Below are positions 1,209 through 18,824 of a stretch of DNA of 20,000 nucleotides, in pieces. Numbering within the stretch: the stretch's first letter is position 1; each line of letters begins with the position of its first letter. The notes under the pieces were generated by a model. That model did no database searches and was not told where the DNA came from. It saw nothing but the letters and a program-made list of their open reading frames with translations. The position numbers and the translations under genes are program-made. Source of the DNA: an uncultured virus (IMG/VR IMGVR_UViG_3300048008_000607) (taxonomy: Duplodnaviria > Heunggongvirae > Uroviricota > Caudoviricetes > Crassvirales); the IMG/VR virus record IMGVR_UViG_3300048008_000607. One strand, written 5' to 3'.

Positions 1209-2924
1209 ATGATAAACAACACAGAGATCAATGGATTTTTGATTGAGCAATTCAATCAATACGATCTGGATGTAGGTAAGCCACAAGGCATTTGTCCTTT
1301 GTGCTCTCATGACAGAAAACCTGAGAATAAAAAGCAAAAGTGTGCTTCTTACGATTGGGAACGGGGTCTCGGCACTTGTCATAACTGTGATCAAACTTTT
1401 CAACTACATACGTACCAACGCAAGGGAAATGCGGATAAGATTTATGTTAAACCAGAACCCCTTGAAGTAGTTACAGAAGTTAGTACTAAAGTAGAAGAAT
1501 GGTTTCAATCACGTGGTATATCCAAGGAAACTCTAAAGGCTCTCAAAGTATCTGAGGGCCTTGAGTTTATGCCACAGACCGGAAAACAAGAAAATGCTAT
1601 ACATTTTAATTATTTTGTAGGCGGCGAGCTTATAAATATAAAATATAGAGATGGTAGAAAGAATTTTAAATTATTTAAAGGAGCCGAAAAGGTTTTTTAT
1701 AATATTGATAATATTGTTGGCTTTGAATATTGTATTATTGTGGAAGGCGAGATGGATGCTCTTAGTCTTTATGAAGCTGGTATATCTAACGTTATATCTG
1801 TCCCAAACGGCGCCACATTAAATAGTAATAATTTAGACTACTTAGATAATTGCATTGATTATTTTTTAGATAAAGAAAAAATAATTATAGCAGTAGACTC
1901 TGATGAAGCCGGTCAAGCATTACAATCTGAATTAGTTAGAAGATTAGGAGCTGAAATATGCTACATAGCTAATTTTGATGATTGTAAAGACGCAAACGAA
2001 TATCTTTTAAAATATGGAAAACAAAAACTGGCAGAGTGTATTTCAGGAGCAAAGCCAGTACCGCTGGAGAATGTTACTACATTCCGGGATATTGAAGGAG
2101 AAATTACCGACTTTGTTAAAAATGGCTTTAAAAAAGGATACCAAATTGGCATTCCAAATTTTGATGAAATTTTTTCAACATACACTGGTCAATTCATTAC
2201 TGTTACTGGTATTCCTTCTTCCGGAAAAAGTGATTTTGTCGACCAAATGGTTGTGGGCTATAACCAAAATTATGGTTGGAAAACGGCATTTGCTTCGCCT
2301 GAAAATGCACCAACTTATTTACATGCTCATAAGCTGATGCGTAAAGTGTGGCAAGATATGCCGCGTAAAGATCAAATTGGGTCTGATAAATGGAATCAAG
2401 TAGCTGACCACGTTAATGATAATTTCTTTTTCATTGATATGGACAGATATACACTTGAGTCTGTATTGCGTAAAGGTGCTGAATTAGTAAAACGTAAAGG
2501 AATTAAATGTTTAGTTATTGATCCTTTCAATAAAGTAAGAGATGTTGATGCTAAAACAGAAGATGTAAATAGATATACAATGGAATACTTAACTAAAATT
2601 GAAACCTTTGCTAAAAAGTTTGATGTTTTAGTTATAGTAGTTGCTCACCCAACTAAAATGTATAAAGATGGAAATGGAAAGATTGAAGAACCGACTATGT
2701 ATAATATCAAAGGAGGTGGTGAGTGGTATGATGCTTCTTATCATGGCCTTCTTGTTCACAGGGATTACGACAATAAAACAGTTAAAGCAAAAGTTCTTAA
2801 AGTTAAATTTCAAAACTTAGGAGAAAATGGAGCAGAAGCACATTTCAAATGGGAACCTAGATCTGGTTGTTTTATACCTCATGAGCCTATGAACTTAGAA
2901 AAAGAAGCAATGCCTTGGGAATAG
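1209..2924 (+). CDS. T7 gp4/Twinkle-like DNA primase-helicase
   Basis: N-terminal Zn finger (CPLC...CHNC), TOPRIM (IVEGEMDALS, VDSDEAG, KDANE), SF4 helicase Walker A GIPSSGKS, Walker B LVIDP, VVAHP motif. Confidence 0.95.
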   Translation: MINNTEINGFLIEQFNQYDLDVGKPQGICPLCSHDRKPENKKQKCASYDWERGLGTCHNCDQTFQLHTYQRKGNADKIYVKPEPLEVVTEVSTKVEEWFQSRGISKETLKALKVSEGLEFMPQTGKQENAIHFNYFVGGELINIKYRDGRKNFKLFKGAEKVFYNIDNIVGFEYCIIVEGEMDALSLYEAGISNVISVPNGATLNSNNLDYLDNCIDYFLDKEKIIIAVDSDEAGQALQSELVRRLGAEICYIANFDDCKDANEYLLKYGKQKLAECISGAKPVPLENVTTFRDIEGEITDFVKNGFKKGYQIGIPNFDEIFSTYTGQFITVTGIPSSGKSDFVDQMVVGYNQNYGWKTAFASPENAPTYLHAHKLMRKVWQDMPRKDQIGSDKWNQVADHVNDNFFFIDMDRYTLESVLRKGAELVKRKGIKCLVIDPFNKVRDVDAKTEDVNRYTMEYLTKIETFAKKFDVLVIVVAHPTKMYKDGNGKIEEPTMYNIKGGGEWYDASYHGLLVHRDYDNKTVKAKVLKVKFQNLGENGAEAHFKWEPRSGCFIPHEPMNLEKEAMPWE

Positions 2925-3188
2925 ATGGCTAAAAAAGAAACTAAATGGATGCCTCATTATGAGCCTTCAAATGAAGAGTATGAATGGCATAATTTTTGTA
3001 CCACTAAGGGTATAATTATATCACCTATTGCTGCTGTAAGAGGGTCTAATCCTGAGGAATGGCGTATAGGAGTTTCTTTTATGCCTGATTATAAAAAAAT
3101 AAATTTATCGCCATCTATATATGATAAACATATTATATGGCAGGAAACATTTAAAATGATGAAATATTATTATGATAAATATAGATGA
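2925..3188 (+). CDS. hypothetical protein (87 aa)
   Basis: Starts directly after the primase TAG and overlaps the start of the thyA-like gene; no motif recognised. Confidence 0.7.
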   Translation: MAKKETKWMPHYEPSNEEYEWHNFCTTKGIIISPIAAVRGSNPEEWRIGVSFMPDYKKINLSPSIYDKHIIWQETFKMMKYYYDKYR

Positions 3189-3996
3189 AGAATATAGAGG
3201 TTTACTATCGGGTGTTTTTCACGCGGGTAAAAATAAAGAAGATCGCACGGGCGTTGGTACAAAATCTGTTTTTGGTCGTACAATCCGTCACGACATGGCT
3301 GGAGGGTTTCCTCTTATTACAACAAAAAAAGTTAGTTTCAATGCCGCTCTTACAGAAATATTATGGATACTTCAAGGTCGCACTGATTTACAATATCTTA
3401 CTAACCATAATGTTAATTATTGGACTCCCAACTATGAAGCATCAGGAAGGAACGATGGAACTCTTGGCAAGGTATACGGTTATCAGTGGAGAAATTTCAA
3501 TGGTGTTGATCAATTGCGTAATTTATTATTGGACATCAAAAGAACCCCACATTCGAGAAGACTTTTGGTTAATGCTTGGAATCCTAGCGATTTCGATGAT
3601 ATGGCATTGCCTCCTTGTCATTATGGTTTTCAAGTCTATATAAATAACGGTGTAATGGATCTTATTTGGCAACAAAGATCTGTTGATATATTTTTAGGTT
3701 TACCTTATGATATAGCAATGTATGGTTTATTATTGTTAATGTTAGCTAAAGGAAATGGATATGAGCCAGGGCAATTAATAGGCCAGCTTGGTGATTGCCA
3801 TTTATATAACAATCATTTGGAGCAAGCTAAAATACAATTAGCTAGAGAACCAAAAAATTTACCAACTGTTGATATTTCTTTTGGTTTAAAGATTCAAGAA
3901 GGCGCAAATAACTTTATATTTATACCATCACATAACATGTTTAAATTAAATAATTATGAGTCACACCCAAGAATCAAAGCAGAACTTGCAATCTGA
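3172..3996 (+). CDS. thyA: thymidylate synthase (ThyA) family protein with Asn-to-Asp specificity substitution; possible dCMP methylase
   Basis: DRTGVGT, VYGYQWR, SRR, catalytic PPCH (C149), QRSVDIFLGLPYD (D180 where ThyA has N), DCHLYNNH, C-terminal IKAELAI. Confidence 0.95.
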   Translation: MINIDEEYRGLLSGVFHAGKNKEDRTGVGTKSVFGRTIRHDMAGGFPLITTKKVSFNAALTEILWILQGRTDLQYLTNHNVNYWTPNYEASGRNDGTLGKVYGYQWRNFNGVDQLRNLLLDIKRTPHSRRLLVNAWNPSDFDDMALPPCHYGFQVYINNGVMDLIWQQRSVDIFLGLPYDIAMYGLLLLMLAKGNGYEPGQLIGQLGDCHLYNNHLEQAKIQLAREPKNLPTVDISFGLKIQEGANNFIFIPSHNMFKLNNYESHPRIKAELAI

Positions 3997-4084
3997 AAAA
4001 TTATGGTTTAATAAAACAAACTATATGGCAAAATATTTAAATAAAAAAAGTAATAAAATAATTGAAAAAATAAAAAACAAAAAT

Positions 4085-4504
4085 ATGAAAAAATTTATAT
4101 TTATAATGTTGTTTCCTGTATTTGCTATAGGACAAAATTACTACGATGATGCATTACGTTTTCAAAATAATATAAGAAGCTATTATGATATGCCTGTAAT
4201 GTCATATAATAATGAACTAGCTTTAGAAGCCCAAGTTTGGGCAGAACATTTAGCTAGTATTGATGATGTACAAGTTAGCACAGATAATTATGGTGAAAAT
4301 ATATTTTATATTGATAAAATATATGCAGGTGTACGAAACAAAAATGTTTTATTAGAAGCCTCAATTAATTGGATTGTTGATACAGATAATTGGGATACTT
4401 TTAATCAAATAATATATCCTGAAGCAACAAATATTGGATTTGGTATGGCAGAAAATAATGAATCAATATATGTAGTTGCTAAGTATAATAAACTGCACAA
4501 ATAA
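4085..4504 (+). CDS. secreted CAP/SCP (PR-1-like) domain protein, 139 aa
   Basis: Likely start ATG 4085 gives signal peptide MKKFIFIMLFPVFAIG|Q. CAP-like pattern QNNIR...YNNELALEAQVWAEHLA...YGENIF...FNQIIYPEATNIGFG...VVAKY. Confidence 0.75.
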   Translation: MKKFIFIMLFPVFAIGQNYYDDALRFQNNIRSYYDMPVMSYNNELALEAQVWAEHLASIDDVQVSTDNYGENIFYIDKIYAGVRNKNVLLEASINWIVDTDNWDTFNQIIYPEATNIGFGMAENNESIYVVAKYNKLHK

Positions 4505-4505
4505 T

Positions 4506-5267
4506 ATGTTTTATATTTATCACATTCCTGGTAAAAAAATAGGTGTAACACGTAATCTAAATAACAGAGTTACGCTGGTGCAGGGCTATAAGCCTGATGA
4601 ATATGAAGTTCTTGATTCTTCTGAAGATATAGATTATATATCTGAGAAGGAAATAGAACTTCAAAAGTCTTACGGATATAAAATTGATAGAGCATTATAT
4701 AAAAATTTATTTAAATCAAATGTAAAAATGGACATAAACATCACAGAACAAACAACAACTTTTCCAGTTGAAAAAAAGAAATTAAAAAAGTTTCTTAAAG
4801 ATAACATTGAAAGTAAATGGAAAACTTCATTAGGTGTATTTGAAATAAACAAAGAAACAATTAAATGGATTTTTAAAAACTCTAAAGTATCAATGTACAA
4901 TGATCAACGTTCTTATATTTATAATAAAGCCTTTTATGAAGCTTTTTTGGCAGAGCCAACGTACAACAAAGAAAACATATTTGGACTCATTAGAGACTGG
5001 GCAGACGAGCGCGGTATCTATGATAAAGGAGATGTTAAAACTCAACTAATTAAATTATATGAAGAATCAGGAGAATTATCGCAAGGGATACTTAAAGACA
5101 GCCAACCAGATATTATTGACGCTATTGGTGATTGTGTTGTTGTTCTCACTAATCTCGCCCACCTTGCAGGTACCGACATTGAAAGCTGTATTCAGTCTGC
5201 TTATGATGAAATATCTACTAGAACTGGTGAAATGAAAAATGGTACATTTGTAAAAACAACATTATAA
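4506..5267 (+). CDS. fusion of N-terminal GIY-YIG-like domain and C-terminal MazG-like NTP pyrophosphohydrolase
   Basis: Likely start ATG 4506. N-term FYIYHIPGKKIGVTRNLNNRV...EKEIE resembles GIY-YIG. C-term IRDWADERG...KLYEESGEL...DAIGDCVVVL...AYDEISTRTG is MazG-like (EExGE...DxxGD). Confidence 0.8.
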   Translation: MFYIYHIPGKKIGVTRNLNNRVTLVQGYKPDEYEVLDSSEDIDYISEKEIELQKSYGYKIDRALYKNLFKSNVKMDINITEQTTTFPVEKKKLKKFLKDNIESKWKTSLGVFEINKETIKWIFKNSKVSMYNDQRSYIYNKAFYEAFLAEPTYNKENIFGLIRDWADERGIYDKGDVKTQLIKLYEESGELSQGILKDSQPDIIDAIGDCVVVLTNLAHLAGTDIESCIQSAYDEISTRTGEMKNGTFVKTTL

Positions 5268-5494
5268 TGAGAGATCAAATAATAAAACAAGTTATAAATA
5301 AAATTCAATCAAGATCAGATGTTGGTTATAAAAAGTATGGTGTTACTTTAGCGGATGATGATCAACCACTTGATACATGGTTGCAGCACTTACAAGAAGA
5401 ATTAATGGATGCTGTTAATTATCTTGAGAAAGCTCGTATGGTATTAAGAGATGAGGTTGAAGAATGTTATATTAGAGATGCGAAGAAAAATTAA
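5267..5494 (+). CDS. small all-alpha NTP-pyrophosphohydrolase-like phage protein (75 aa)
   Basis: RSDVGYKKYGVTL...WLQHLQEELMDAVNY pattern (GxxKYG, EExxD) of a common phage MazG/dUTPase-superfamily family; TAATG coupling to upstream gene. Confidence 0.6.
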   Translation: MRDQIIKQVINKIQSRSDVGYKKYGVTLADDDQPLDTWLQHLQEELMDAVNYLEKARMVLRDEVEECYIRDAKKN

Positions 5495-5924
5495 AAAAAG
5501 AGGACCTGTTAGAGCAAAAAAAATTAGTTATGATGGTCATAATTTTGCTTCAGGTTTAGAACGTTATATGTATATTGCTTTAAAGAAAGCAAAAATAAAA
5601 GCTAAATATGAGGGAGAAACATTCGTTTTAATTAATGGCTTTCACTTTGAAAACGAAGCTTATGAAAGGCAAGCCAATGGAAAAGGTGAGTATGTCAATA
5701 GAGGTAGTAAAAGAATATTACCTATTAAATATACTCCAGACTTCATTGGTAATGATTTTATAATTGAAACCAAAGGAAGGCCAAACGAATCGTTTCCTAT
5801 TAGATGGAAGTTGTTTAAAAGATTAGTTACGGAACAATTTCCTGAGTACACTTTGTATAAGCCACAAAATCAAAAAGAATGCGACAGAACAGTAGAGCTC
5901 ATCCTGAGCAAGCAAAAAAAATAG
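5478..5924 (+). CDS. T7 endonuclease I-like Holliday junction resolvase (PD-(D/E)XK)
   Basis: FASGLE, YE, YTPDF...IIETKG motifs match endonuclease I; likely start ATG 5478. Confidence 0.85.
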   Translation: MRRKIKKRGPVRAKKISYDGHNFASGLERYMYIALKKAKIKAKYEGETFVLINGFHFENEAYERQANGKGEYVNRGSKRILPIKYTPDFIGNDFIIETKGRPNESFPIRWKLFKRLVTEQFPEYTLYKPQNQKECDRTVELILSKQKK

Positions 5925-6054: not shown

Positions 6055-6189
6055 ATGAAAAATTGGGAGCTTAGCGTCGGATTATACCCCGGTATACTTA
6101 TAGGTATAAGAACATATGTTGAACCAGAATATAAACAGCACGTGCTTTATTTGCCGTTTGTGGATATTTGCTTAGAAATTGATAATTAA
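6055..6189 (+). CDS. small hypothetical protein (44 aa, MKNWELSVGLYPGILIGIRTY...), not in ORF track
   Basis: ATG 6055 to TAA 6189, 2 nt after the previous stop and 1 nt before the nrdB ATG; beta-strand-like pattern. Confidence 0.65.
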   Translation: MKNWELSVGLYPGILIGIRTYVEPEYKQHVLYLPFVDICLEIDN

Positions 6190-6190
6190 T

Positions 6191-7159
6191 ATGGGTTTAT
6201 TTGATGAAAGAATTGCATACAAACCATTCGAATATCCAGAATACTATACTGAGGGATGGCTTAAACAAGCTCAGGCGTTCTGGCTACATACCGAGATACC
6301 AATGTCAGGTGACGTCAAGGATTGGAACGAAAAGCTTACACACGAAGAGAAAAACTTGGTTGGAAATATCTTGCTGGGCTTTGCACAGACAGAGTGTGCG
6401 GTATCTGATTACTGGACGCAAAAAGTTGTTTCGTGGTTTCCAAAGCATGAAATACAGCAGATGGCTATGATGTTTGGTTCGCAAGAAACAATACATGCTG
6501 TAGCTTATAGTTATTTAAATGAAACATTAGGATTAGAAAACTTTGAAGCATTCCTACAAGATGATGCAACAATGGCTCGATTTGACAACCTCGTTGCTTT
6601 ACCAGGTGATAATACTGTAGAAATTGGTACTTCTCTTGCAGTCTTTAGCGCATTTGCTGAAGGCGTTTCCTTATATTCTGCTTTCGCTGTGTTATACAGT
6701 TTTCAGTTACGTAATCTTCTTAAAGGTATCGGACAACAAATGAAATGGAGTGTTCGTGATGAATCGCTGCATAGTAAAATGGGTTGTCAGTTATTTAGAC
6801 ATATGTGCCAAGAAGATAATAGCTTATTAGAAAAATGTAGAGATGAAGTTATTGAAGCAGCATCGGCAATGCTTGTCGCTGAAGAAGATTATATTGACAG
6901 AATGTTCGAAGCAGGCGATATTGAAGGAATTAAAGCAGCCGACCTTAAACAGTTTATTAGAAAAAGACTTAACGAAAAGTTACAAGAACTTGGTTACCTT
7001 GACCTCGGGCAATACTTTGCTTTTAACAAAGAGCAAGCAAGTACCCTTGACTGGTTTTACCATCTTACAGGCGGTCATACCCATACTGATTTCTTTGCTG
7101 TTCGTCCAACAGACTATTCTAAAGCAAATGAAGGAGAAGATTTTGAAGATATTTGGTAG
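6191..7159 (+). CDS. nrdB: class I ribonucleotide reductase beta subunit
   Basis: YKPFEYP, FWLHTE, ligands E68, E99xxH102, Y106, AEGVSLYSAF, DESLH, C-terminal DFFAVRPTDY. Likely start ATG 6191. Confidence 0.95.
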   Translation: MGLFDERIAYKPFEYPEYYTEGWLKQAQAFWLHTEIPMSGDVKDWNEKLTHEEKNLVGNILLGFAQTECAVSDYWTQKVVSWFPKHEIQQMAMMFGSQETIHAVAYSYLNETLGLENFEAFLQDDATMARFDNLVALPGDNTVEIGTSLAVFSAFAEGVSLYSAFAVLYSFQLRNLLKGIGQQMKWSVRDESLHSKMGCQLFRHMCQEDNSLLEKCRDEVIEAASAMLVAEEDYIDRMFEAGDIEGIKAADLKQFIRKRLNEKLQELGYLDLGQYFAFNKEQASTLDWFYHLTGGHTHTDFFAVRPTDYSKANEGEDFEDIW

Positions 7160-7509
7160 TGAGAAAGTGTAATAAATGTAACAAAGAAAAATCTACACAT
7201 AAGTTTAGATATGGCAAAAGAACTTGTAAAAAATGTGAATATCGTTTTAAACAAAGATTTTTACGCATATTAGTACAAGATAAAAGACTAACAGCAGTAG
7301 AAAGATTATCTTTTAGATTAGGATATATGGGCACAGCTTTTATGATGATGTCACCACATTTACTTAGCCACGGAAATATTGGTGCTATAACTTATGTGAT
7401 AGCGGGATTATTATTAACACCTCAAGTATTTGTATTAAAACAATGGAATCTCGTGGCGGTAAACCTAAATGTAACAATTGGATATTTAATTTATTTATAT
7501 AATGCATAA
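7159..7509 (+). CDS. Zn-finger plus ~3-TM membrane protein
   Basis: GTG start overlapping the nrdB stop (TAGTG); CNKC...CKKC followed by three hydrophobic segments. Confidence 0.7.
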   Translation: MRKCNKCNKEKSTHKFRYGKRTCKKCEYRFKQRFLRILVQDKRLTAVERLSFRLGYMGTAFMMMSPHLLSHGNIGAITYVIAGLLLTPQVFVLKQWNLVAVNLNVTIGYLIYLYNA

Positions 7510-7715
7510 TGAAAGAAAACAAACTAATAGAAATGTGGAACAGGATAGAAGTGCTGGGCCAAAACATGCAACAGATAATAACAGAAATGAACAATCTCAG
7601 AGATTTATCTATTGGGACGATGAGCCTAATGAAAAAACTACCTGACTATGATAAAGCAATAGAAGCTTTAACAGAAGATCTAAAAAAAGAAAAAGAAAAT
7701 AAAGATGTGGAATAA
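7509..7715 (+). CDS. hypothetical helical/coiled-coil protein (68 aa)
   Basis: TAATG coupling upstream, overlaps the nrdA start; heptad-like pattern. Confidence 0.7.
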   Translation: MKENKLIEMWNRIEVLGQNMQQIITEMNNLRDLSIGTMSLMKKLPDYDKAIEALTEDLKKEKENKDVE

Positions 7716-9447
7716 CGACTGGGTTAAAGGTGAGGATTATCCTATATGGGGTGATACTGAAGTTTATAAAAAAACAATTACTGGTGGTTACTTGTTTCAA
7801 AATGAATCACCAAAAGAAGCATATTGGCGTGTGGCTAATGCAGTTGCTAAGCGTTTATATAAGCCTGAATTAGCTGAAAAGTTTTTTCAATATATATGGG
7901 ATGGTTGGTTATGTTTAGCTTCACCAGTGCTATCTAATACAGGTACAGATAGAGGTTTACCTATTAGTTGCTTTGGTATTGATGTTGCTGATAGTATAAA
8001 TGATATAGGACAAAAGAATTTAGAAATGATGCTATTAGCCAAGCATGGAGGCGGTGTTGGCATAGGAGTTAATATGATAAGACCCGCCGGTGCTAAAATT
8101 ACAGGTAATGGAACAAGTGATGGAGTGGTCCCGTTTTGCAAGATATACGATTCAACAATACTTGCCACTAATCAAGGATCTGTCCGCAGAGGAGCTGCGT
8201 CAGTTAATATCAATATTGATCACCCCGACTTTGAAGAATGGTTGGAGATCAGAGAACCAAAAGGAGATGTTAATAGACAATCACTTAACTTACACCAGTG
8301 CGCTGTGGTCGGTGACAAGTTTATGCGAAGACTTGAACAAGGAGATAAAGAAGCTAGAGTCAAATGGTCAAAGCTATTACAAAAACGTAAAGCAACTGGA
8401 GAACCTTATATACTCTTTAAGGGAAATACAAACAAAAATAATCCAAAAGCGTATAAATCAAATGGGCTCAAAGTCCATATGACAAACATATGTAGTGAAA
8501 TTACATTACATACAGATGAATCGCATAGCTTTGTTTGTTGTTTATCTTCTGTTAATTTAGATAAATATGATGAATGGAAGAATACTAATTTAATATATGA
8601 TGCAACATGGTTTTTAGACGGGGTACTGGAGGAGTTTATTCAGAAAGCAAAAAACATGAAGGGATTCGAAAACTCTGTCCGCAGTGCGGAAAAAGGACGT
8701 GCCCTTGGTCTAGGAGTATTGGGATGGCACAGTCTACTCCAAAAGAATGGCATTGCGTTCGAAGGTTTATTAGCTCAATTTAAAACACGTGAAATTTTTA
8801 GCAAAATTAAGATTGAGTCTGAAAGAGCATCGCGAGATCTTGCAGAGGTATATGGGGAGCCGCTCTGGTGTGTCGGTACTGGTATGCGTAACACTCATCT
8901 TCGGTCTGTGGCCCCTACAGTCTCTAACAGCAAGCTTAGCGGTAACGTATCTCCTGGAATTGAGCCTTGGGCTGCTAACGTATTTACAGAGCAAAGTGCT
9001 AAGGGTACGTTTATTAGAAAGAATAAAGAACTTAAAAAAGTATTAAGAAAAATTGGAATTGATGTTAAAGAAACTTGGGACAAAATTTTGGAAGATGGTG
9101 GATCCGTTCAAGGAATTAAAGAACTCGATGGATGGTTTTATGATCATGGGGGGAAGCTCAACCAAGAAGAAGGAGAACCATTAAAAAATGTATTTAAAAC
9201 ATTTAAAGAGATTAATCAATTAGAATTAGTTAATCAAGCTGGTATACGTCAAGATTATATAGATCAATCAGTAAGTTTGAATTTAGCATTTCCATCAGAA
9301 GCACAACCTAAATGGCTTAATAAGGTACATTTAGAAGCTTGGAAACGTGGAATTAAAACATTATATTATATGAGAACTGAATCTGTTTTAAGAGGTGATA
9401 TTGCGGCTAAAGCAATGGATCCTGATTGTTTAAGCTGTGACGGATAA
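7705..9447 (+). CDS. nrdA: class I ribonucleotide reductase alpha subunit, short form without ATP-cone
   Basis: ASPVLSN, PISCF, GGGVG, QGSVRRGA, catalytic TNICSE, APTVSNS, IDQSVSLN, KTLYY, C-terminal CLSCDG. Confidence 0.96.
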   Translation: MWNNDWVKGEDYPIWGDTEVYKKTITGGYLFQNESPKEAYWRVANAVAKRLYKPELAEKFFQYIWDGWLCLASPVLSNTGTDRGLPISCFGIDVADSINDIGQKNLEMMLLAKHGGGVGIGVNMIRPAGAKITGNGTSDGVVPFCKIYDSTILATNQGSVRRGAASVNINIDHPDFEEWLEIREPKGDVNRQSLNLHQCAVVGDKFMRRLEQGDKEARVKWSKLLQKRKATGEPYILFKGNTNKNNPKAYKSNGLKVHMTNICSEITLHTDESHSFVCCLSSVNLDKYDEWKNTNLIYDATWFLDGVLEEFIQKAKNMKGFENSVRSAEKGRALGLGVLGWHSLLQKNGIAFEGLLAQFKTREIFSKIKIESERASRDLAEVYGEPLWCVGTGMRNTHLRSVAPTVSNSKLSGNVSPGIEPWAANVFTEQSAKGTFIRKNKELKKVLRKIGIDVKETWDKILEDGGSVQGIKELDGWFYDHGGKLNQEEGEPLKNVFKTFKEINQLELVNQAGIRQDYIDQSVSLNLAFPSEAQPKWLNKVHLEAWKRGIKTLYYMRTESVLRGDIAAKAMDPDCLSCDG

Positions 9448-10732: not shown

Positions 10733-10887
10733 TATCCTAATTTCCCCCCTCTTTTCCGGCATTTAGCAATATAACCCGATGCATAAGCTGATGGGAATAC
10801 TCTGTATTTTGCTTTTGCTTTACGATAACATGCATCCTTTTTAGTTAAAGGTGTAGATGTTTTTGCTGTTATTGGGTTATATTTCAT
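10732..10887 (-). CDS. small basic protein resembling the N-terminal half of DUF5872-like proteins (51 aa), not in ORF track
   Basis: MKYNPITAKTSTPLTKKDACYRKAKAKYRVFPSAYASGYIAKCRKRGGKLG; ATGA overlap with the giant gene's stop and TAATG overlap with the next gene. Confidence 0.75.
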   Translation of the reverse strand: MKYNPITAKTSTPLTKKDACYRKAKAKYRVFPSAYASGYIAKCRKRGGKLG

Positions 10888-13800
10888 CTTTTAAATTTTC
10901 TTTTAACTGTTCTATTTATATTTCTATTTGTATCTCTAGGATTAAACTTTTTAGATTTTTTAGTTTGCTTTTCAATCATGTTCAAATCCCATTCGCTCCA
11001 ACCGAGTGATAATGCAATTGCTTGCCATAATTCTGTTTCAGATTGCATAGCAGTATAAAGATGATCTGCTTTCTGTACAATTCTATCTGCGGGTAAGTTT
11101 GTTGCAGCAGATAATACTTTACCTCCAGCTAAAAATGCAGGATTTTCTAAACTAAATCCTTCTGTAAATACTTTTTCTTTCGATTGCTTATAAGTAAATG
11201 TTTTACCGGCAGATTCAAGTTTTCTTAATTTAGAATTAATAGGAGGCGAAAGTGATGTTGCTTCAATTGCAATTTTAGTATAATCAGGCCTTGATTTTTC
11301 GGATTGCTCAATTATTTCTATAATCATGTTTTTTACAGTAGCAGCCGCTGCACCATAAACGCCAATACCCCTTAGTAAAGTATCAAAACTACTGTTACCA
11401 ATTCTAAATAGTCTAGACTTTTCTTTATCATCATCTTCATCATCAAACAATAAAGCAAATAATCCTTGTTGTAAAGCAGAGAATATAATATTCTGTATTA
11501 CACTATAATAAGCAATCTTACTTATATTTGTTTTCCAATCTCCACGTCCATTAATCAAATCTAATGTAGCTTTTTTAGTTAACCGAGCGTATTGCATAGG
11601 TGTATTACCAAAAGCTAATATAAGACGCCCTAGTGAGCTTGCTTGCTGTGATGATATTCTATCAGGTCTTGCAGATTGTTGTGTTTCTTCTGCAATTTCT
11701 TGAAAATCTGTAAATGCTTTCGATTCAGCCTCTTTTTGACTTAAACCTTCTTTTAAATATTTATTAATTCTGTTACGGTACATTGTAGCTCCGCCAGATG
11801 CAATCGCAAAACTATCAGCAATTTGAGTTGGTGTAAAACCAAATTTAAGCAAAGCACTTAGCATTGCTCTTGCTGTATTTTTAGACCCTTTTGCTGCTCT
11901 AGCAATTTCATCCGCATTAACATCAGTTTGTAAACCTGTTCTACGTTGCTTTAAAAAATCTGAATTAAATAATGTTGTAAAATCTTTTACATATTGTGGA
12001 AAATTACCAAAAGCAAGTGCTGCGTTAATAGGATTGTTATCACTAAAATTTATAAAGTTAACAGCTGATAAAGTCTGGAGCACAGCGGATCTAGCGTTGA
12101 AAAACATAATAGCACCTACAGAATTGTTCGTCCAATCCATAAATTGTTTTTCAATTTTACTAGCACCAAATTTTCTATTAGTGCCGGTACGCATTCTATG
12201 GAGCATGTCATTTAATGCCTCAACATATGTATCCCCGTATAAAGCTCTTAACTTTTCTTTATTTTGATCAGAAAATATTTCGTCAGCGTTTTGTTTCCAT
12301 TCAGTTAAAAATTCACTACGCTTAACACCATTTATATAAGATACAATGTCTGTTGTTATATCACCTGAATCCCAATTATCTGATGGTTCTGGATAACCTT
12401 CTGGCTGTAACGCCATTAATCGATCGGCAAAAGCTTTTAACTTTTTGTCTGCTTTAACTATTTCTAGGTTTTGCTGTACTAATTCTGGGCTTCCTTCGGT
12501 TCCTGGTATGTCCATACCTTGTGTAGCCCAAATATAAATACGCACCGCGTCTTGATTAGTTAGTCCAGTAGCATTCCTTTTACCTAACCCACCCGGCACA
12601 TCTTTTTTAGCTTCTTTTTTTAGTACTTGCCAATCCCTAAGTGCTTTTTGTTTTGCAGCCTCATATTGTTGAATACCACGAGAAAATGGTCGAAGTAAAT
12701 TTTCCTTATACCATTCCATTTGCCGATCTCCCACTTTACCTTTACCTAATGTTGCATATAATAAACCAACAAAATCATCTGCTGAATAAGGAATAAAGAA
12801 TTTTTTACCTTTACCTTTTCCAACAACTTTGGCTTCAACCGGTGAAAATCTTTTAGCCCAATCTACTTTAGTAGTTTTTTGTAATATATCTTCATTAAAT
12901 TGTCTATTTAAAGATTTTTTATTAGGATCATTTTTAAAATATACTAAGTCCTTGTTTACATCTAATATATTATTATATCTGTCAACAGTATTACCAGTCT
13001 TTGGTATAAGGTCTTTTCCTTTTTGTCTACTTTGAACTAAATCTACAAAGCTTTTATCTAAAACTTTTTTAATAGCATTTGTAAAATCTAAAGCGCTATC
13101 GCCTTCTTTGTAATTATCTATTATTTTTTCAAGTTGTTCTCTTAATGTAGCAATTGGAGGAGTATGTTCATATGTAACTTCTTTAACTCCTTTTTGGTAT
13201 GATCTTAATTTACCCATCATTCTAAGCGGAGTATCACTTGCGGTATTACTACCCCAAAGCTGTAAAAGATTTTTAGCGTCTTCTTTAAGGTTTTTAAAAG
13301 TTAATCTTGTTATTTCATCTAAAACAACTTTTTTATTGTACTCTGCTTGATTATCAAAGTCATCTAAATTTTCTTTTATATATTGAGTAAACTTAACAGG
13401 ATCTTTAGCAAAGCTGCCACTTTTCCCCGTCATAGTTTTAGGATTACTATTTTTAACTAATTCTCTTAGTTTTTTATTATCAAAGAATATTGTAAAGTTT
13501 ACTTTTCCTGTTACTTTAAATCTTTTTAAATCTTCTTTAGATATTAAGTTTTTGCTTTTAACAAACTCAAATAATTCTTTTGAATTATTACCTACAACAA
13601 ATCCACCGTTTTTAAGTGGGTCACCTATATATCTCATAAAATTAATTACATCTTCTAAATTTTTAGATTTTTGTAATTCAATAATTTTATTTTCTACAAT
13701 TTTTCTTGCTCTTACTTCAGATATAGCAACATCTAAATTTTTAACAAATTTTTCATTTGTTTCAATATCAGCTATATCTTCTGGCTTTGTAAATGTTTTT

Positions 13801-16481
13801 TTAGCTGTTTCTTCAAAAACTTGTTGCTCTTCTTTATTGGGCAATAACTTTTTAGCTTCATCAATTGCTTTTTTTAGCGCTTTTGCAAAATTACCAGTGG
13901 CTTTAAAGGCTAATTTGAATGATTTTAAGAATGTTTTTGCTAATGCAATGGCAAGTTCAGGAATAATTAAAGAAACATATAAAGTATCATTATTTTTTTG
14001 AAGTTTATCTAAATAGTCAATAGCTCTATCAATTTTTTCAGATATAATTTCAATAAAGTTACTTGGAACTTCTTGCCCTTGTAACTCTTGAATAGCTTTA
14101 AACTTTTCAACAACTTCAGGTTTTGATAACGATGTAAGCACATTATCTAATCCAATTTCATCAGCTAAAATTTTTGCTAATGAAGTTTTACGAGCACCTT
14201 TAACACTTCCGGGTGCGTTTAAAAAATATTTTAAAAATTCAGCTTTACTTATATAACGTTTTTTAAATACCTTTTTTCCTTCTGCTGTTTTTTCTCGTAA
14301 CTGTTTGCCAGTTTTAGGATCTAATACAGGCTCATTAAATTCTTTAAAGTTACGATTTATAGTTTCTTGCGGTATTGCTGGATATATTTTTTCAAAGTTA
14401 TCTCTAAGAAATTGTTCATACGCAGCTGTTCTACCAAACACTTTTTTAAATGTATTTGTTAATTCATTTCTAAATCCGGTAGTAAGAGCTTGTTTAAACT
14501 TTTTATCAGTAACAGCGGGTAATTTAGTTCCTAATGTTTTTTCTACAGCAGCAACCACTTCGTTCTGTGTATCTTCAGATAAGTTAAGATCTTTAGCAAG
14601 CTCAGTCTTTATTTCTTGCTTTGCTTGTTCTTTAACTTCCATCTGTGTATCAGCAGCTGTTGTATCGGTAACTCCTTTAGCTTCTGTAACATCTAACTCA
14701 AAATCTGTTTTAAGATTTCTTTGTGCTGCTTCAATACCTCTAGTGGCTGCAAACTTATTTACATAAGCAGATAAAGGAACTTTTGTATCAGGTTTGTAAG
14801 AATTAATTAAATCAAGAATACCACGTTGACCAGTAAGTATTTCATCAACCATAAGGTCCATTTCAAATCCTGGTACATTTCTATATTTAGATGCTATACG
14901 CTTAGCCATTGGGCGATAAAGTTCTAATATTTCTGCGATACCCTCTTTGCCTTTATCTTCGTATAATTTATTTACTTTTTGTGCTTGCTTATTACCTTTA
15001 TCTTGTAAATTTTCTTTAACCCCTTGTATTCTATTTTTAGCTTTTATATATTCAGCTTTATATCCTTCTGTAGCTAAAGCATATTCCTCTTCGGTAATTT
15101 TATTTTTATTTTTCTTTTCTTTAAGATCGTTAAATCTTTTTACTTGCAGTTTAGCTAAATCATCAAGATTATTAATATCATTAATATCTTTGTCAGAAGC
15201 AAAATCAAAAATAGCATTACCTTTAATTATTCTATTTTTAAGTCGCTCTTCAACTTCTGATATTTTATTTTCAATTCCTTTTTTTGCAGTTTTATCTAAA
15301 ACACCTCTTAACTTAGTATTAAGATTAGAAAGTTCATCTATATCACTTTCAATTCCTTTAATATCCTCAGGAGCTCTTCCTAAAGAAATAGCATTTCTTA
15401 CGTCTTTATTACCTAAACCACTAAATCCAGCACCGCCAATAAACCCTTGTACACCAGCTTCCCAAGTATCTTGTTCTGTAAAAGCTTCTGCAAATCTAGC
15501 TGCAGTTTGTCCAACATCATCTGTTTTACCGTATGTTTGTTGTGCTTTTTCTAGTGCGGTTTGAATCACTTCAGTACCACTTTCAGCAGCGCCTGCTAAA
15601 ATAAAATTACTTAATTTACGCATTGCGGCTCCAGTAAGTTGTTTACTTGCAGCACTAGCAACTTTACCTAACCCTATTGTTTCTGCAGCGGCCATTGCGG
15701 AAGAAAAAACTAAAGGAGTTAGAACTTCATCTTTACCACTATTAACTAATTCTTCTAAAGGTATGTTTAATCTTTTTGCTTTTTCTTCGTTTATTGATAT
15801 ATATGAATCGCCAAAAAAATCTGTACCAATCATTAAACCAGCACCTACTTTACCACCTAATAAGAATCCGGCACCCCCTTCTATTAAGGACGGTACAAAA
15901 GAAGTAGCAGCATTGAATATCCCTCCTGCAATATCACTTATATCACCTTCTTTAAATCCTTCAATTATTTCACCAGTTTCTTTTGATTTTGCCTGAGACT
16001 CTTGTATTTTATTAATTGCTTCAATTTTGTCTTCTTCTGAAAGTCCTTCAGTCCAAAAAGAATCTTCACCTGCATATTCTACAAATTTATTTATATTTTC
16101 ATCACCAAATATTTTTCTATATATCATTCCTGATGTTAGATTAATTTTTGGAGAAATTTGTTTAATACGCTCAACCATATTATTTAATGAATTGGCTACG
16201 CTTTCAGAAAAAGTAATATCTTCTTTTTCAGGATTATTATATGATATAGTTAAATCTAATAATTGCTTATTTAGATTTCCAAGTGAGTCCGAAGAAGGCA
16301 TTCCCAAGGCTAAGTCCATATTTACGGGTGCTACATCGCTGCCCACAATCGCACCCTGAACCGTGGGAGGCAGCTTTACTTCTTGTTCGATAACAGCAGA
16401 AGGAAATTTATTTAAAAAAGCATTTGTTTGATCTTCTGGTATATTATACTTTTTTCCGTTTGGTAATGTGTATATAGGCAT
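10884..16481 (-). CDS. giant (1865 aa) putative internal virion/DNA-ejection protein with embedded sigma-70 region-2-like domain
   Basis: Last and largest of three helical proteins after tail genes. Gly/Ala-rich hydrophobic helices near the N-terminus (GGAGFLLGGKVGAG, AAESGTEVIQ); C-terminal EETQQSARP/LAFGNTPMQY region; sigma-like segment at aa ~510-590. Confidence 0.75.
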   Translation of the reverse strand: MPIYTLPNGKKYNIPEDQTNAFLNKFPSAVIEQEVKLPPTVQGAIVGSDVAPVNMDLALGMPSSDSLGNLNKQLLDLTISYNNPEKEDITFSESVANSLNNMVERIKQISPKINLTSGMIYRKIFGDENINKFVEYAGEDSFWTEGLSEEDKIEAINKIQESQAKSKETGEIIEGFKEGDISDIAGGIFNAATSFVPSLIEGGAGFLLGGKVGAGLMIGTDFFGDSYISINEEKAKRLNIPLEELVNSGKDEVLTPLVFSSAMAAAETIGLGKVASAASKQLTGAAMRKLSNFILAGAAESGTEVIQTALEKAQQTYGKTDDVGQTAARFAEAFTEQDTWEAGVQGFIGGAGFSGLGNKDVRNAISLGRAPEDIKGIESDIDELSNLNTKLRGVLDKTAKKGIENKISEVEERLKNRIIKGNAIFDFASDKDINDINNLDDLAKLQVKRFNDLKEKKNKNKITEEEYALATEGYKAEYIKAKNRIQGVKENLQDKGNKQAQKVNKLYEDKGKEGIAEILELYRPMAKRIASKYRNVPGFEMDLMVDEILTGQRGILDLINSYKPDTKVPLSAYVNKFAATRGIEAAQRNLKTDFELDVTEAKGVTDTTAADTQMEVKEQAKQEIKTELAKDLNLSEDTQNEVVAAVEKTLGTKLPAVTDKKFKQALTTGFRNELTNTFKKVFGRTAAYEQFLRDNFEKIYPAIPQETINRNFKEFNEPVLDPKTGKQLREKTAEGKKVFKKRYISKAEFLKYFLNAPGSVKGARKTSLAKILADEIGLDNVLTSLSKPEVVEKFKAIQELQGQEVPSNFIEIISEKIDRAIDYLDKLQKNNDTLYVSLIIPELAIALAKTFLKSFKLAFKATGNFAKALKKAIDEAKKLLPNKEEQQVFEETAKKTFTKPEDIADIETNEKFVKNLDVAISEVRARKIVENKIIELQKSKNLEDVINFMRYIGDPLKNGGFVVGNNSKELFEFVKSKNLISKEDLKRFKVTGKVNFTIFFDNKKLRELVKNSNPKTMTGKSGSFAKDPVKFTQYIKENLDDFDNQAEYNKKVVLDEITRLTFKNLKEDAKNLLQLWGSNTASDTPLRMMGKLRSYQKGVKEVTYEHTPPIATLREQLEKIIDNYKEGDSALDFTNAIKKVLDKSFVDLVQSRQKGKDLIPKTGNTVDRYNNILDVNKDLVYFKNDPNKKSLNRQFNEDILQKTTKVDWAKRFSPVEAKVVGKGKGKKFFIPYSADDFVGLLYATLGKGKVGDRQMEWYKENLLRPFSRGIQQYEAAKQKALRDWQVLKKEAKKDVPGGLGKRNATGLTNQDAVRIYIWATQGMDIPGTEGSPELVQQNLEIVKADKKLKAFADRLMALQPEGYPEPSDNWDSGDITTDIVSYINGVKRSEFLTEWKQNADEIFSDQNKEKLRALYGDTYVEALNDMLHRMRTGTNRKFGASKIEKQFMDWTNNSVGAIMFFNARSAVLQTLSAVNFINFSDNNPINAALAFGNFPQYVKDFTTLFNSDFLKQRRTGLQTDVNADEIARAAKGSKNTARAMLSALLKFGFTPTQIADSFAIASGGATMYRNRINKYLKEGLSQKEAESKAFTDFQEIAEETQQSARPDRISSQQASSLGRLILAFGNTPMQYARLTKKATLDLINGRGDWKTNISKIAYYSVIQNIIFSALQQGLFALLFDDEDDDKEKSRLFRIGNSSFDTLLRGIGVYGAAAATVKNMIIEIIEQSEKSRPDYTKIAIEATSLSPPINSKLRKLESAGKTFTYKQSKEKVFTEGFSLENPAFLAGGKVLSAATNLPADRIVQKADHLYTAMQSETELWQAIALSLGWSEWDLNMIEKQTKKSKKFNPRDTNRNINRTVKRKFKR

Positions 16482-16493
16482 ATTAAATTTTAT

Positions 16494-18044
16494 TTAACGT
16501 ATTCCAGCTTGTTCTTTTTGTATTCTAATTCTAGCACTTTCTAATGTGCTTTTTTCATTTAATTGGTTTAATGTATCTGTAGTGTTTATTTCTTTTAATG
16601 TACCTTCAACATCAATGTTAGGGCTAATCTCATATTGGCTTTCATCAAATTCGGCATCAGTATCTTTTTCTGTATTAAACATGGTTAAACGATCATTAGC
16701 AGTGTATCCAAATAAATCTTTAATAAATTTATCAACTGCCATTCCTGGTGTTTCACCTATAATAAATGGTTTTTGTTTTCCATTTACTTCTATAACATAT
16801 GCGTTAGGATTTAATAAATTTCCGTCGTTATCTGTTTGACTATTTTGATATATTTCAATACCAGGTATAGTGTTATTTGCGTACTCAATAAGAGATTTTG
16901 CCTGCGCCTCGTTTATTGGTTGAGCACTTAAAAATTTACTCACTGGCTTTAAAAACACTGAAGTAGTTTGTAACTCTTTTTGACGCATTAATTCATCAAA
17001 TTGATATTTAGTTAAATCCCCTTTACCTTTAGCTTGTTCAGCTTTAATTTTATTAACTCTATCGTATTCGGTTTTAAGATTAGATGATGTATTTAAAGCT
17101 ATACTTTTATATTGTTCTTTAACTCTATTAACAAAGTCTTCTGGTAAAGCAACATCTTTAAATGATTGTATATATTCATTTTCATCAATATCTCCATCAT
17201 TATTTGCGTCAATAGCATCTTTACCTGTGAGTGTTTTAAACATAGGTGCTAATTCTCCAAAGGGTCCACCCATTTTTAAAAAATCTGTTGCTAATGAAAG
17301 TGCTTGCTTTGGTTGCATTTCAAGATTTCTAAAATAGTTATCAATCTTTTGTTCAAGATATGCGCTTTTTTCAGTATCTTCACCCCCAATAAACATCCCT
17401 TTAGATGCTGCTTGTTCTGTAATGCCTATAATATCTTTTTCTATTTTATTATGAGCTTCATAATCTTTTGTAGTTAATTCAGGTAAATCATCAAAAGAAA
17501 CCTCTTGACCTGTTGTATTACTTTTAAAATACATTTGGCCATCTTTAAATACTGGCTCACCATTTAATTGTACAATATCTTGTATCAATCCTTTTTCATC
17601 AGCCGTTAAAGAATCTGAAAAATCACCACTATCAGAAATATCTTTATAAGCCTGCGAATACTCTTTTATAGCATTAATAGAGCCTTGCATTTGTGCAATT
17701 TTTTTATTTTGATTAGATAAAGAATCCATATAATCAAATTGATTCATTGATCCTTTTTGACTAACTAATTGTCTATTTTCATCTTTAACAGATAAAGCTT
17801 GTTGGGTATACCAACCTCTCCATGCTTCAGGGACACCATCAGTTTGTAAAGCACCTAAGCTTTTATAGTCTTTAGCTTTTATTAATTCTTCTCTTTCTTT
17901 TTCTAATCTAAGTTTTTCAGCTTCGGCTTCTCTTTTCTGTTGAGCAGATTCAAAAGCTTGTACGCCTCTATCCACAGCATTACTTACACTGACATACCTA
18001 TCAGCTGAAATTCCCGCGCCTCTTATTAATGCTAAATTTGCCAT
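16494..18044 (-). CDS. putative internal virion/ejection protein (516 aa) with EF-hand loop
   Basis: Helical, charged protein between the Gln/Ala-rich protein and the giant protein; DANNDGDIDENE loop. Confidence 0.6.
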   Translation of the reverse strand: MANLALIRGAGISADRYVSVSNAVDRGVQAFESAQQKREAEAEKLRLEKEREELIKAKDYKSLGALQTDGVPEAWRGWYTQQALSVKDENRQLVSQKGSMNQFDYMDSLSNQNKKIAQMQGSINAIKEYSQAYKDISDSGDFSDSLTADEKGLIQDIVQLNGEPVFKDGQMYFKSNTTGQEVSFDDLPELTTKDYEAHNKIEKDIIGITEQAASKGMFIGGEDTEKSAYLEQKIDNYFRNLEMQPKQALSLATDFLKMGGPFGELAPMFKTLTGKDAIDANNDGDIDENEYIQSFKDVALPEDFVNRVKEQYKSIALNTSSNLKTEYDRVNKIKAEQAKGKGDLTKYQFDELMRQKELQTTSVFLKPVSKFLSAQPINEAQAKSLIEYANNTIPGIEIYQNSQTDNDGNLLNPNAYVIEVNGKQKPFIIGETPGMAVDKFIKDLFGYTANDRLTMFNTEKDTDAEFDESQYEISPNIDVEGTLKEINTTDTLNQLNEKSTLESARIRIQKEQAGIR

Positions 18045-18056
18045 ATTATTTTATTT

Positions 18057-18824
18057 TTATCCGCCTAGTTGTTTTATTTGAACATCAGGCATAGTTGCTC
18101 CTCCAGCAAATGCTGCATTTACATCTTGAAATTGTCCACTCTTATTTTTTATAAAACGAGAAGGGTTTTCTTTAATTAATTTTTTTGAAGCTAATTTGCC
18201 ACTTGCTAATTTTTTAGTTGGTATTTTTCCAGGTCCCATAGCCCCTAATGCTCCACCTGCTGCTTCCGCAATACCACCAACTAAATCCTGCGTTGCTGCT
18301 GCTCTTGCTGCGTCTGCTGCAGCTTTTCTTTGTTGAGACATACCTAATAATGTTTCTGTTCTTCCGAACTCTTGCTCTTGTACATACTGTTGCCCCTGCG
18401 CTCTAGCCGCTTGTAGGTTTTGTTGACCTTGAGCCGCGGCCATTTGATTAGCTGATTCTTGCTGACCAATGCTAGCTGCCGATGCTTGTAAATTTTGGGA
18501 TTGTTGTCCTGCCATAGCTTGAGCTAATGCAGCAATTCCAGATCCGCCAGCCGCTGCTTGCATTCCTGAAAGTGTACTAGATAAAGCCTGTTGTTGTTGT
18601 TGAGATTGGAACTGTGCTTGTTGTTGATTTACAGTTAAATCCTCAAAGGGGTTTGTCATTTGAGCAGAGGGATCCTTAAACTCAAATGTTTCGTAAGCTT
18701 GTCTTCTTTGAGCCAATTCTGCCTTAGCAGATTCTTGTTCTTTTCTTCTAGCTCTACCTCCTACAAGAGAACCTGCTGCTTTTATAATTCCTGGAGCTGC
18801 TGCTGCTATTAATGGTAAAGGCAT
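18057..18824 (-). CDS. Gln/Ala/Gly-rich putative ejection (pilot-like) protein
   Basis: N-terminal hydrophobic Ala/Gly segment followed by a basic patch, long Q/A-rich helices and Gly-rich C-terminal helix; first of the three-gene set after tail genes. Confidence 0.65.
   Translation of the reverse strand: MPLPLIAAAAPGIIKAAGSLVGGRARRKEQESAKAELAQRRQAYETFEFKDPSAQMTNPFEDLTVNQQQAQFQSQQQQQALSSTLSGMQAAAGGSGIAALAQAMAGQQSQNLQASAASIGQQESANQMAAAQGQQNLQAARAQGQQYVQEQEFGRTETLLGMSQQRKAAADAARAAATQDLVGGIAEAAGGALGAMGPGKIPTKKLASGKLASKKLIKENPSRFIKNKSGQFQDVNAAFAGGATMPDVQIKQLGG

Follow-up and report, generated by a model that had tools for sequence, protein, structure and literature searches.

Phages that replace their cytosine completely, such as T4 and Xp12, bring their own polymerase and helper enzymes. 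In the hydroxymethylcytosine system of T4, gp56 removes dCTP, gp1 acts as the kinase and EndoII is the nuclease. Here, a 20,000-nucleotide stretch of DNA from an uncultured virus of the Crassvirales (IMG/VR IMGVR_UViG_3300048008_000607; hereafter the window) was analyzed for a cassette formed by a thymidylate synthase (TS) homologue of the ThyA family and a protein in which a GIY-YIG-like domain is fused to a MazG-type domain. Sequence comparisons lead us to favor, with moderate confidence, pre-replicative substitution of cytosine by 5-methylcytosine (5mC) through a minimal cassette, in which the MazG domain would serve as dCTPase and the kinases and polymerase would be those of the host. Xp12 and T4 already exemplify this enzyme class and this logic; new are the interchangeable modifier slot, the nuclease-MazG fusion and the lack of a kinase and polymerase. 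No description of this cassette was found in a literature search, most subscription papers being outside its reach.

Among the described systems, Xp12, whose DNA contains 100% 5mC according to Table 1 of PMC7653180, is the closer analogue for the TS of the window than the 5-hydroxymethylcytosine (5hmC) phage T4, which the original prediction had taken as its model. The Xp12 enzyme (MT664984, CDS 45326-46195) shares with that of the window the Asp within a GLPYD motif and a full-length ThyA fold, at 30% identity. However, Xp12 carries a dCMP deaminase, a dihydrofolate reductase-like gene and DNA Pol I near its TS, and no GIY domain or MazG of the window's clade was found in the 20 kb of Xp12 examined, whereas the family of the window keeps the His at E. 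coli position 147 and has neither a deaminase nor Pol A in any of nine near-complete relatives. Statements on gene content rest on these nine relatives, which are 96-100% complete, plus the window. With T4 the window would share the logic of modifier, dCTP removal and nuclease, and in 34 of 78 relatives the slot is occupied by an enzyme of the T4 gp42 type. The window differs from T4 in that its TS lacks Asp three residues before the catalytic Cys (Cys-3), a GIY-like domain is fused to its putative dCTPase, a small MazG, neither a phage kinase nor a phage polymerase was detected in the family, and no glucosyltransferase adjoins the cassette. The contigs recovered by MetaGPA likewise combine an Asp177 TS with an all-alpha pyrophosphohydrolase (PRA-PH) on DNA with modified cytosine (PMC8670742; 10.1101/2024.12.05.627091), but their modules centre on deaminases, Pol A and carbamoyltransferases, and "MazG" occurs 0 times in the main text of either paper. 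By description, the family also resembles the Group 2 putative Flavobacteriaceae phages (PMC5332604) in having GroEL, sigma-70 and phi38:1-like structural genes, although thymidylate synthase has 0 mentions in that paper; elemoA and phi38:1 themselves differ from the family in lacking ThyA. The cassette consists of the following features.

3172..3996, + strand: ThyA homologue, predicted dCMP C5-methyltransferase (PF00303, E 1e-87)
3709..3711, + strand: GAT codon of Asp180, the equivalent of E. coli Asn177 by alignment to canonical ThyA
4506..5267, + strand: 253-aa fusion protein of three domains, with its ATG at 4506
4506..4715, + strand: GIY-YIG-like (T5orf172/MUG113) domain of the fusion, candidate nuclease, with invariant Y5, H6, K11, G13, R21 and E49
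4731..4955, + strand: middle domain of the fusion, no assigned function, with conserved T85, W121, N125, S129 and Y139
4968..5267, + strand: MazG-type all-alpha NTP pyrophosphohydrolase domain of the fusion, with E186 E187 x x E190, D205 and D209

The identification of the first gene as an Asp variant of ThyA was upheld by its Pfam match, by the pairing of Asp180 with the Asn of canonical ThyA ("lpydiamy" vs "vpfniasy") and by an intact catalytic Cys149, and all 80 relatives drawn with the TS carry Asp at the 177 position. The enzyme has Leu146 at Cys-3, His150, Asp180 within GLPYD and a full C-terminal tail that aligns to the ThyA C-terminus. Methylases are described as combining Leu at Cys-3 with an intact C-terminal tail needed for hydride transfer, and hydroxymethylases as having Asp at Cys-3 (PMC6400193). 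Because of its Leu at Cys-3 and full tail, the TS of the window lacks the hydroxymethylase signature of Asp at Cys-3 without a C-terminal tail. Asp177 has been tied to dCMP use and marks modified-cytosine contigs (PMC8670742), and five of seven Asp-type enzymes tested in E. coli supplied with T4 gp1 made 5-methyl-dCMP in vivo (bioRxiv 10.1101/2024.12.05.627091). Judged by these residues, the ThyA homologue of the window is very probably a dCMP methylase.

The slot occupied by this enzyme is interchangeable within the family. Relatives drawn with the upstream primase, a sample unbiased for TS, comprised 80 loci, two of which end too early, leaving 78 informative ones. All 78 contain a TS homologue followed by GIY-MazG, and none contains the Asn version. 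The TS is methylase-type in 44 loci (40 with GLPYD and 4 with G[IV]PYD, the latter about 33% identical to the TS of the window) and hydroxymethylase-type in 34, namely 32 assigned by their GFCND motif plus L357 and the frameshifted L373, both assigned by inspection. The GFCND-type enzymes are short (about 215-245 aa), carry a DTPC motif that places Asp at Cys-3, lack the C-terminal tail, and find their best PDB matches in MilA and T4 gp42. On a quick primase tree of 75 rows the TS type changes 10 times, with at least five changes forced by well-supported branches and with mixed-type sister pairs (such as L352/L357 and L354/L355), while on a GIY-MazG tree of 68 rows it changes 8-9 times, at least four of them forced. 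The GIY-MazG proteins of L352 and L357 are 86% identical across TS types, and no alignment column separates the types. Since GIY-MazG does not sort by TS type, it appears indifferent to the modification made, which fits a dCTPase; unmodified dCTP would be the substrate whose removal serves both TS types.

The predicted model of the fusion is confident (pLDDT 89) and contains three domains, so that both the GIY-YIG-like and the MazG domain originally proposed are retained, while the middle domain (approximately residues 76-150) had been overlooked. Fold searches with the whole fusion are dominated by matches of the C-terminal MazG domain, which is recognized by PF03819 (E 1e-4) and phrog_715 (E 7e-27) and resembles 1vmg, 2yxh and 7ody with Z scores of 9.2-9.8 (1vmg: Z 9.8, root-mean-square deviation 2.1 over 81 residues). 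Its metal ligands, E-E-x-x-E and D-x-x-x-D (E186, E187, E190, D205 and D209), are invariant. The N-terminal T5orf172/MUG113-like domain matches weakly on its own (E 0.02), GIY-YIG rows in a BFVD search are also weak (E about 0.01-0.02) and a PDB sequence search of the domain returned no match, but PF10544/PF13455 are matched by 17 of 18 aligned homologues of the domain (best 2.8e-7). The domain shows the layout of GIY-YIG nucleases, namely two beta motifs, an Arg placed 8 residues beyond the second Gly, and a Glu within a helix (Y5, G13, R21 and E49 invariant). The Gly-to-Arg spacing is the rule for I-TevI and EndoII. Comparison with six relatives gave a dN/dS of about 0.08-0.2 for this domain, indicating purifying selection. 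It is universal in the family of the window and dispensable in other lineages, most of which have a stand-alone MazG. In the TS-less loci L117-L122 this domain stands free, joined to different C-terminal parts, which suggests that it was captured from a homing-endonuclease-like family. By analogy, an EndoII-like role is plausible.

Beyond the family, the MazG clade is closely linked to Asp-type TS. When 80 loci were drawn with a stand-alone MazG alignment only, an Asp TS lay nearby in 73, an Asn TS in 1 and no TS in 6, of which 3 are at contig ends; equal occurrence with Asn-type ThyA, which would have spoken against the original prediction, is thus not what was found. The only Asn case is a 434-aa open reading frame (ORF) located 4.2 kb from the MazG in a 294-kb record (L271). 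In a pool that includes TS-drawn loci, an Asp TS accompanies 217 of 227 distinct high-scoring MazG domains. Distant MazG relatives without any TS occur in NrS-1, PJA1, DC33 and 2 of 17 records of sister phages. Members of the clade outside the family mostly stand alone, often accompanied by DUF6378 and sometimes by a dCMP deaminase; DUF6378 was not found in the family of the window. DUF6378, a hydroxymethylase-type TS and the same MazG clade occur together in unrelated Bacteroidota-type phages (G005 at L139:8238-11460, L096, L196 and L102). From this gene linkage we infer that the MazG domain is a candidate dCTPase.

Restriction sites in the genomes provide an indirect view of the DNA itself. 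Observed counts of 12 C-containing 4-bp palindromes were compared with Markov expectation. The mean log2 ratio of observed to expected counts (O/E) is -0.06 to -0.39 in the nine family genomes and -0.27 in the window, and -0.72 to -3.13 in six Bacteroidota-type control phages, in each of which two or more sites fall below half of the expected count. Five of these controls lack ThyA, and MW202828 was covered over 30 of its 61 kb, a half in which ThyA was not found. At the level of loci, the family has a median log2 O/E of -0.16 to -0.30 and a purged site in 3 of 54, and sister phages with the same terminase have a median of -1.86 and a purged site in 14 of 17; among the sisters, ThyA was found in 0 of 17 records (0 of 5 at at least 90% completeness), and the fusion was not found either. 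In the family, the counts of GATC, CCGG and AGCT lie close to expectation. By contrast, GATATC is purged, with 22 copies observed vs 147 expected and 0 copies in five of nine genomes, and CATATG is purged in two genomes (3 observed vs 27 expected). According to Table S1 of PMC7653180, EcoRV (GATATC) and NdeI (CATATG) are the only enzymes with a C-containing 6-bp palindrome that cut hydroxymethylcytosine DNA completely; for 5mC DNA the same table lists EcoRV as without a site and NdeI as inconclusive. Loss of GATATC through a phage nuclease that targets its own genome is unlikely, as G003, G004, G013 and the window keep 4, 5, 12 and 2 copies, respectively. An attempt to distinguish 5mC from 5hmC members by their use of 15 differential sites (29 vs 24 loci) gave a mixed outcome. 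As indirect genomic evidence, the footprint probably points to modified cytosine in the DNA of the family, and, together with the linkage to Asp TS, it supports the cytosine-replacement logic originally proposed for Asp-ThyA and the MazG domain.

No cultured member of the family was found, the best matches being about 45% for TS, 42% for primase and 46% for terminase, with no full-length fusion. Among cultured phages, the terminase matches Flavobacterium elemo (46%) and Cellulophaga phages. At least half of the window's words were detected in 12 seawater or marine runs, 2 of which are possibly its source, and the fusion protein forms at least 8000 clusters. The window represents a large family of roughly 60-68-kb GroEL-bearing podoviruses, whose hosts are probably marine Flavobacteriia. 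Its closest complete relative, G001 (66.3 kb, TS 86% identical), encodes GroEL/ES, sigma-70, Erf, portal, terminase and a muzzle-type tail protein; a radical SAM/SPASM gene and the GroEL/GroES pair lie at L123:9371-10294 and 15478-17288. No polymerase, kinase or deaminase family was detected among 69 of the 82 ORFs of G001; the 13 outside the scan are 12 orthologues or fragments of scanned window genes and 1 short opposite-strand ORF. Each of the nine near-complete relatives has a single TS, and Pol A (PF00476), dCMP deaminase (PF00383), ThyX, DNMK and thymidylate kinase were each found in 0 of nine. The ThyX negative is weak, PF02511 also matching 0 of 17 sister records though the group's seed record annotates one. 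No own polymerase was found, Pol B being without a separate search in eight of the nine, where 63 further selected ORFs were scanned. The proposal that kinase and polymerase come from the host agrees with these genomes, in which no dNMP kinase, deaminase, ThyX or second ThyA was found. Bacteroides thetaiotaomicron is the only control genome without a PF02223 thymidylate-kinase match.

Based on these results, the following pathway is proposed. The Asp-ThyA would convert dCMP to 5-methyl-dCMP, a step for which the residues argue strongly, and relatives with a T4-gp42-type enzyme in the slot would make 5-hydroxymethyl-dCMP instead. The MazG domain would then hydrolyze unmodified dCTP to dCMP, clearing canonical cytosine and feeding the first step; we lean slightly towards this assignment, and one MazG could serve both modifier types because its substrate would be unmodified dCTP. 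As the absence of phage versions implies, host kinases would phosphorylate the modified nucleotide, the host replicative polymerase would incorporate it and host ThyA would supply dTMP; an atypical host kinase might accept 5-methyl-dCMP. The resulting DNA, as the site footprint indirectly suggests, would be largely modified at C5 and shielded from most restriction enzymes that read cytosine. More speculatively, and only tentatively proposed, the fused GIY-YIG domain may cut unmodified host DNA as T4 EndoII does. A bolder version, which we regard as possible but doubtful, is a two-gene plug-and-play system, in which an interchangeable C5 modifier and a bifunctional nuclease-dCTPase would suffice, with host kinases and polymerase, for genome-wide cytosine replacement, the family would switch repeatedly between 5mC and 5hmC by exchange of one gene, and the supply of dCMP would be coupled by the fusion to the destruction of unmodified host DNA.

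The cassette lies in the replication operon of the phage, on the + strand of a window with a GC content of 33%, among the following genes.

Ahead of the primase-helicase in the operon, + strand: exonuclease (family scan)
1209..2924, + strand: primase-helicase, upstream boundary of the TS slot and lineage marker
2925..3188, + strand: 87-aa gene without a family that overlaps the start of the TS; most relatives conserve it at low identity
4025/4085..4504, + strand: CAP/SCP-family gene (PF00188, E 3e-14)
5267..5494, + strand: 75-aa two-helix protein with invariant R16, Y24, W38, H41, E44, E45 and D48
5451..5924, + strand: T7 endonuclease I / Holliday-junction-resolvase-like nuclease, downstream boundary of the slot
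6179..9447, + strand: class I ribonucleotide reductase genes nrdB and nrdA, separated by two small genes, for dNTP supply (family scan)

The tight packing noted originally does not extend through the cluster, as the CAP/SCP gene separates ThyA from the fusion. This gene probably starts at 4085, ahead of a stretch that resembles a signal peptide. It was found in 18 of the 80 relatives drawn with the TS and in 11 of the 78 drawn with the primase, and is a variable insertion outside the cassette, unusual for a phage replication operon. Other variable genes include a carbamoyltransferase among O-fucosyltransferase-like genes in G004 (L138:3389-4870), which has a methylase-type TS; this enzyme more likely serves surface modification than DNA modification of the MetaGPA carbamoyltransferase type. 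G012-G014 carry a class II (B12) ribonucleotide reductase (G013: L332:15817-17682) where the window has class I nrdA/nrdB. At 10884-18824 on the - strand, the window encodes proteins of 1865, 516 and 255 aa without a confident Pfam match, a trio positioned like podovirus ejection proteins.

The 75-aa protein had been taken for a second EExxD all-alpha pyrophosphohydrolase. Its H-x-x-E-E-x-x-D motif is indeed invariant, and its gene begins within the stop of the MazG (TAATG), but the searches linked the protein to no pyrophosphohydrolase family or fold: a Pfam search gave no family, a PDB profile search nothing below E 0.03, and hhalign of its profile against the MazG clade a probability of 0.7%. 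Its single-chain AlphaFold model is a two-helix hairpin with no Foldseek match, and its ESM Atlas matches are only unnamed viral clusters, within a large phage family of 6831 clusters at 50% identity. Of 74 relatives, 7 lack the gene at the locus and 3 have it moved upstream. It also occurs in MW202828 and in phage 73, Salvo and elemoA, all three without ThyA, and a place for it in the proposed pathway is not supported. The protein may bind metal or nucleotide, with no tie to cytosine modification, and neither it nor the CAP gene is a required part of the cassette. In L159 the 75-aa gene lies between a pyrimidine-dimer glycosylase and an ATP-dependent ligase, a pair that occurs in several relatives (L159; L324:3692-4219; L328:3274-4119). 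The cluster as originally drawn is upheld in part, for ThyA and the fusion. A four-part system that requires all its parts, with two all-alpha proteins acting as dedicated pyrophosphohydrolases and a GIY domain that, like EndoII, is sensitive to modification, is most improbable. Most family loci preserve the order of TS, GIY-MazG and small gene, purifying selection acts on all three parts and the small protein keeps its invariant H/E/E/D motif, but 10 of 74 loci lack the small gene or have it elsewhere, it is present in ThyA-less phages, the protein has no detectable link to the MazG fold, and most Asp-TS loci outside the family have a stand-alone MazG without GIY.

Several observations weigh against pre-replicative substitution with a MazG dCTPase. 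The TS of the window retains His150 (E. coli His147), while Xp12 has Pro there and the position differs in the modified contigs of MetaGPA (PMC8670742). The top fold matches of the MazG domain include enzymes acting on dGTP, PRA-ATP and dCTP, so that the fold assigns no substrate, and some phages without ThyA carry MazG relatives at about 40-51% identity. A phage dNMP kinase is found in 0 of nine genomes, the published in vivo tests added T4 gp1, and a Flavobacteriia kinase accepting 5-methyl-dCMP is an assumed step. As for restriction sites, the family under-uses CATG (O/E 0.61), GAATTC (0.42) and GGTACC (0.40), and the comparison of 5mC with 5hmC members gave 4 sites in the expected direction, 4 in the opposite one and 7 without difference. 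Outside the family, the siphovirus G005, with a hydroxymethylase-type TS and GIY-MazG, purges CATG (0 of 89 expected) and GGCC (1 of 21), GATC is purged in 4 of 4 methylase-type loci, and C-containing sites are purged in 13 of 27 Asp-TS loci. The sister controls may differ in habitat and host (the record used as seed comes from a freshwater spring; GC 0.37 vs 0.33), and the loci compared are related rather than phylogenetically independent, so that p-values for the comparison of loci exaggerate the contrast.

The main rival explanation, which we consider rather unlikely, is partial substitution, in which 5-methyl-dCMP or 5-hydroxymethyl-dCMP is made, the MazG is a general house-cleaning pyrophosphatase acting on dUTP, oxidized NTPs or (p)ppGpp, and cytosine is modified only in part, blunting restriction. 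Such a system would be compatible with the missing phage kinase and Pol A, the substrate-neutral MazG fold, the residual under-use of CATG, GGCC and GAATTC, and the purging of C-containing sites in other lineages with the same cassette (G005). It accords less well with the near-obligate linkage of the MazG clade to Asp TS across unrelated phages (73/80), with its retention through modifier swaps, both of which fit coupled dCTP removal, and with GATC, CCGG and AGCT near expectation in the family. It is improbable that the cassette instead supplies thymidylate, with dTMP made from dUMP or from host-deaminated 5-methyl-dCMP, the MazG acting as dUTPase and the DNA unmodified. That each of the nine genomes has this enzyme as its sole TS and no detectable ThyX, that His147 is kept and that the genomes are 67% AT would suit such a role. 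However, the slot is hydroxymethylase-type in 34 of 78 relatives, where the product would not yield dTMP, the Asn version is absent from the 78 informative family loci, no phage deaminase was found in the nine near-complete relatives, and unmodified DNA would leave the kept restriction sites with selective loss of GATATC unexplained.

Modified cytosine is a known phage defence, which probably appears here in an unusually small form. If cytosine is substituted before replication as proposed, a version of the system that lacks both kinase and polymerase would show which parts suffice at minimum and provide a two-gene route to 5mC or 5hmC DNA, and the MazG clade would offer a new candidate dCTPase and mark phages that modify cytosine. 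Much marine viral DNA would then carry non-canonical cytosine, affecting restriction-based and bisulfite-type methods. Moreover, the repeated swaps between methylase and hydroxymethylase in this phage family suggest selection by modification-dependent defences.

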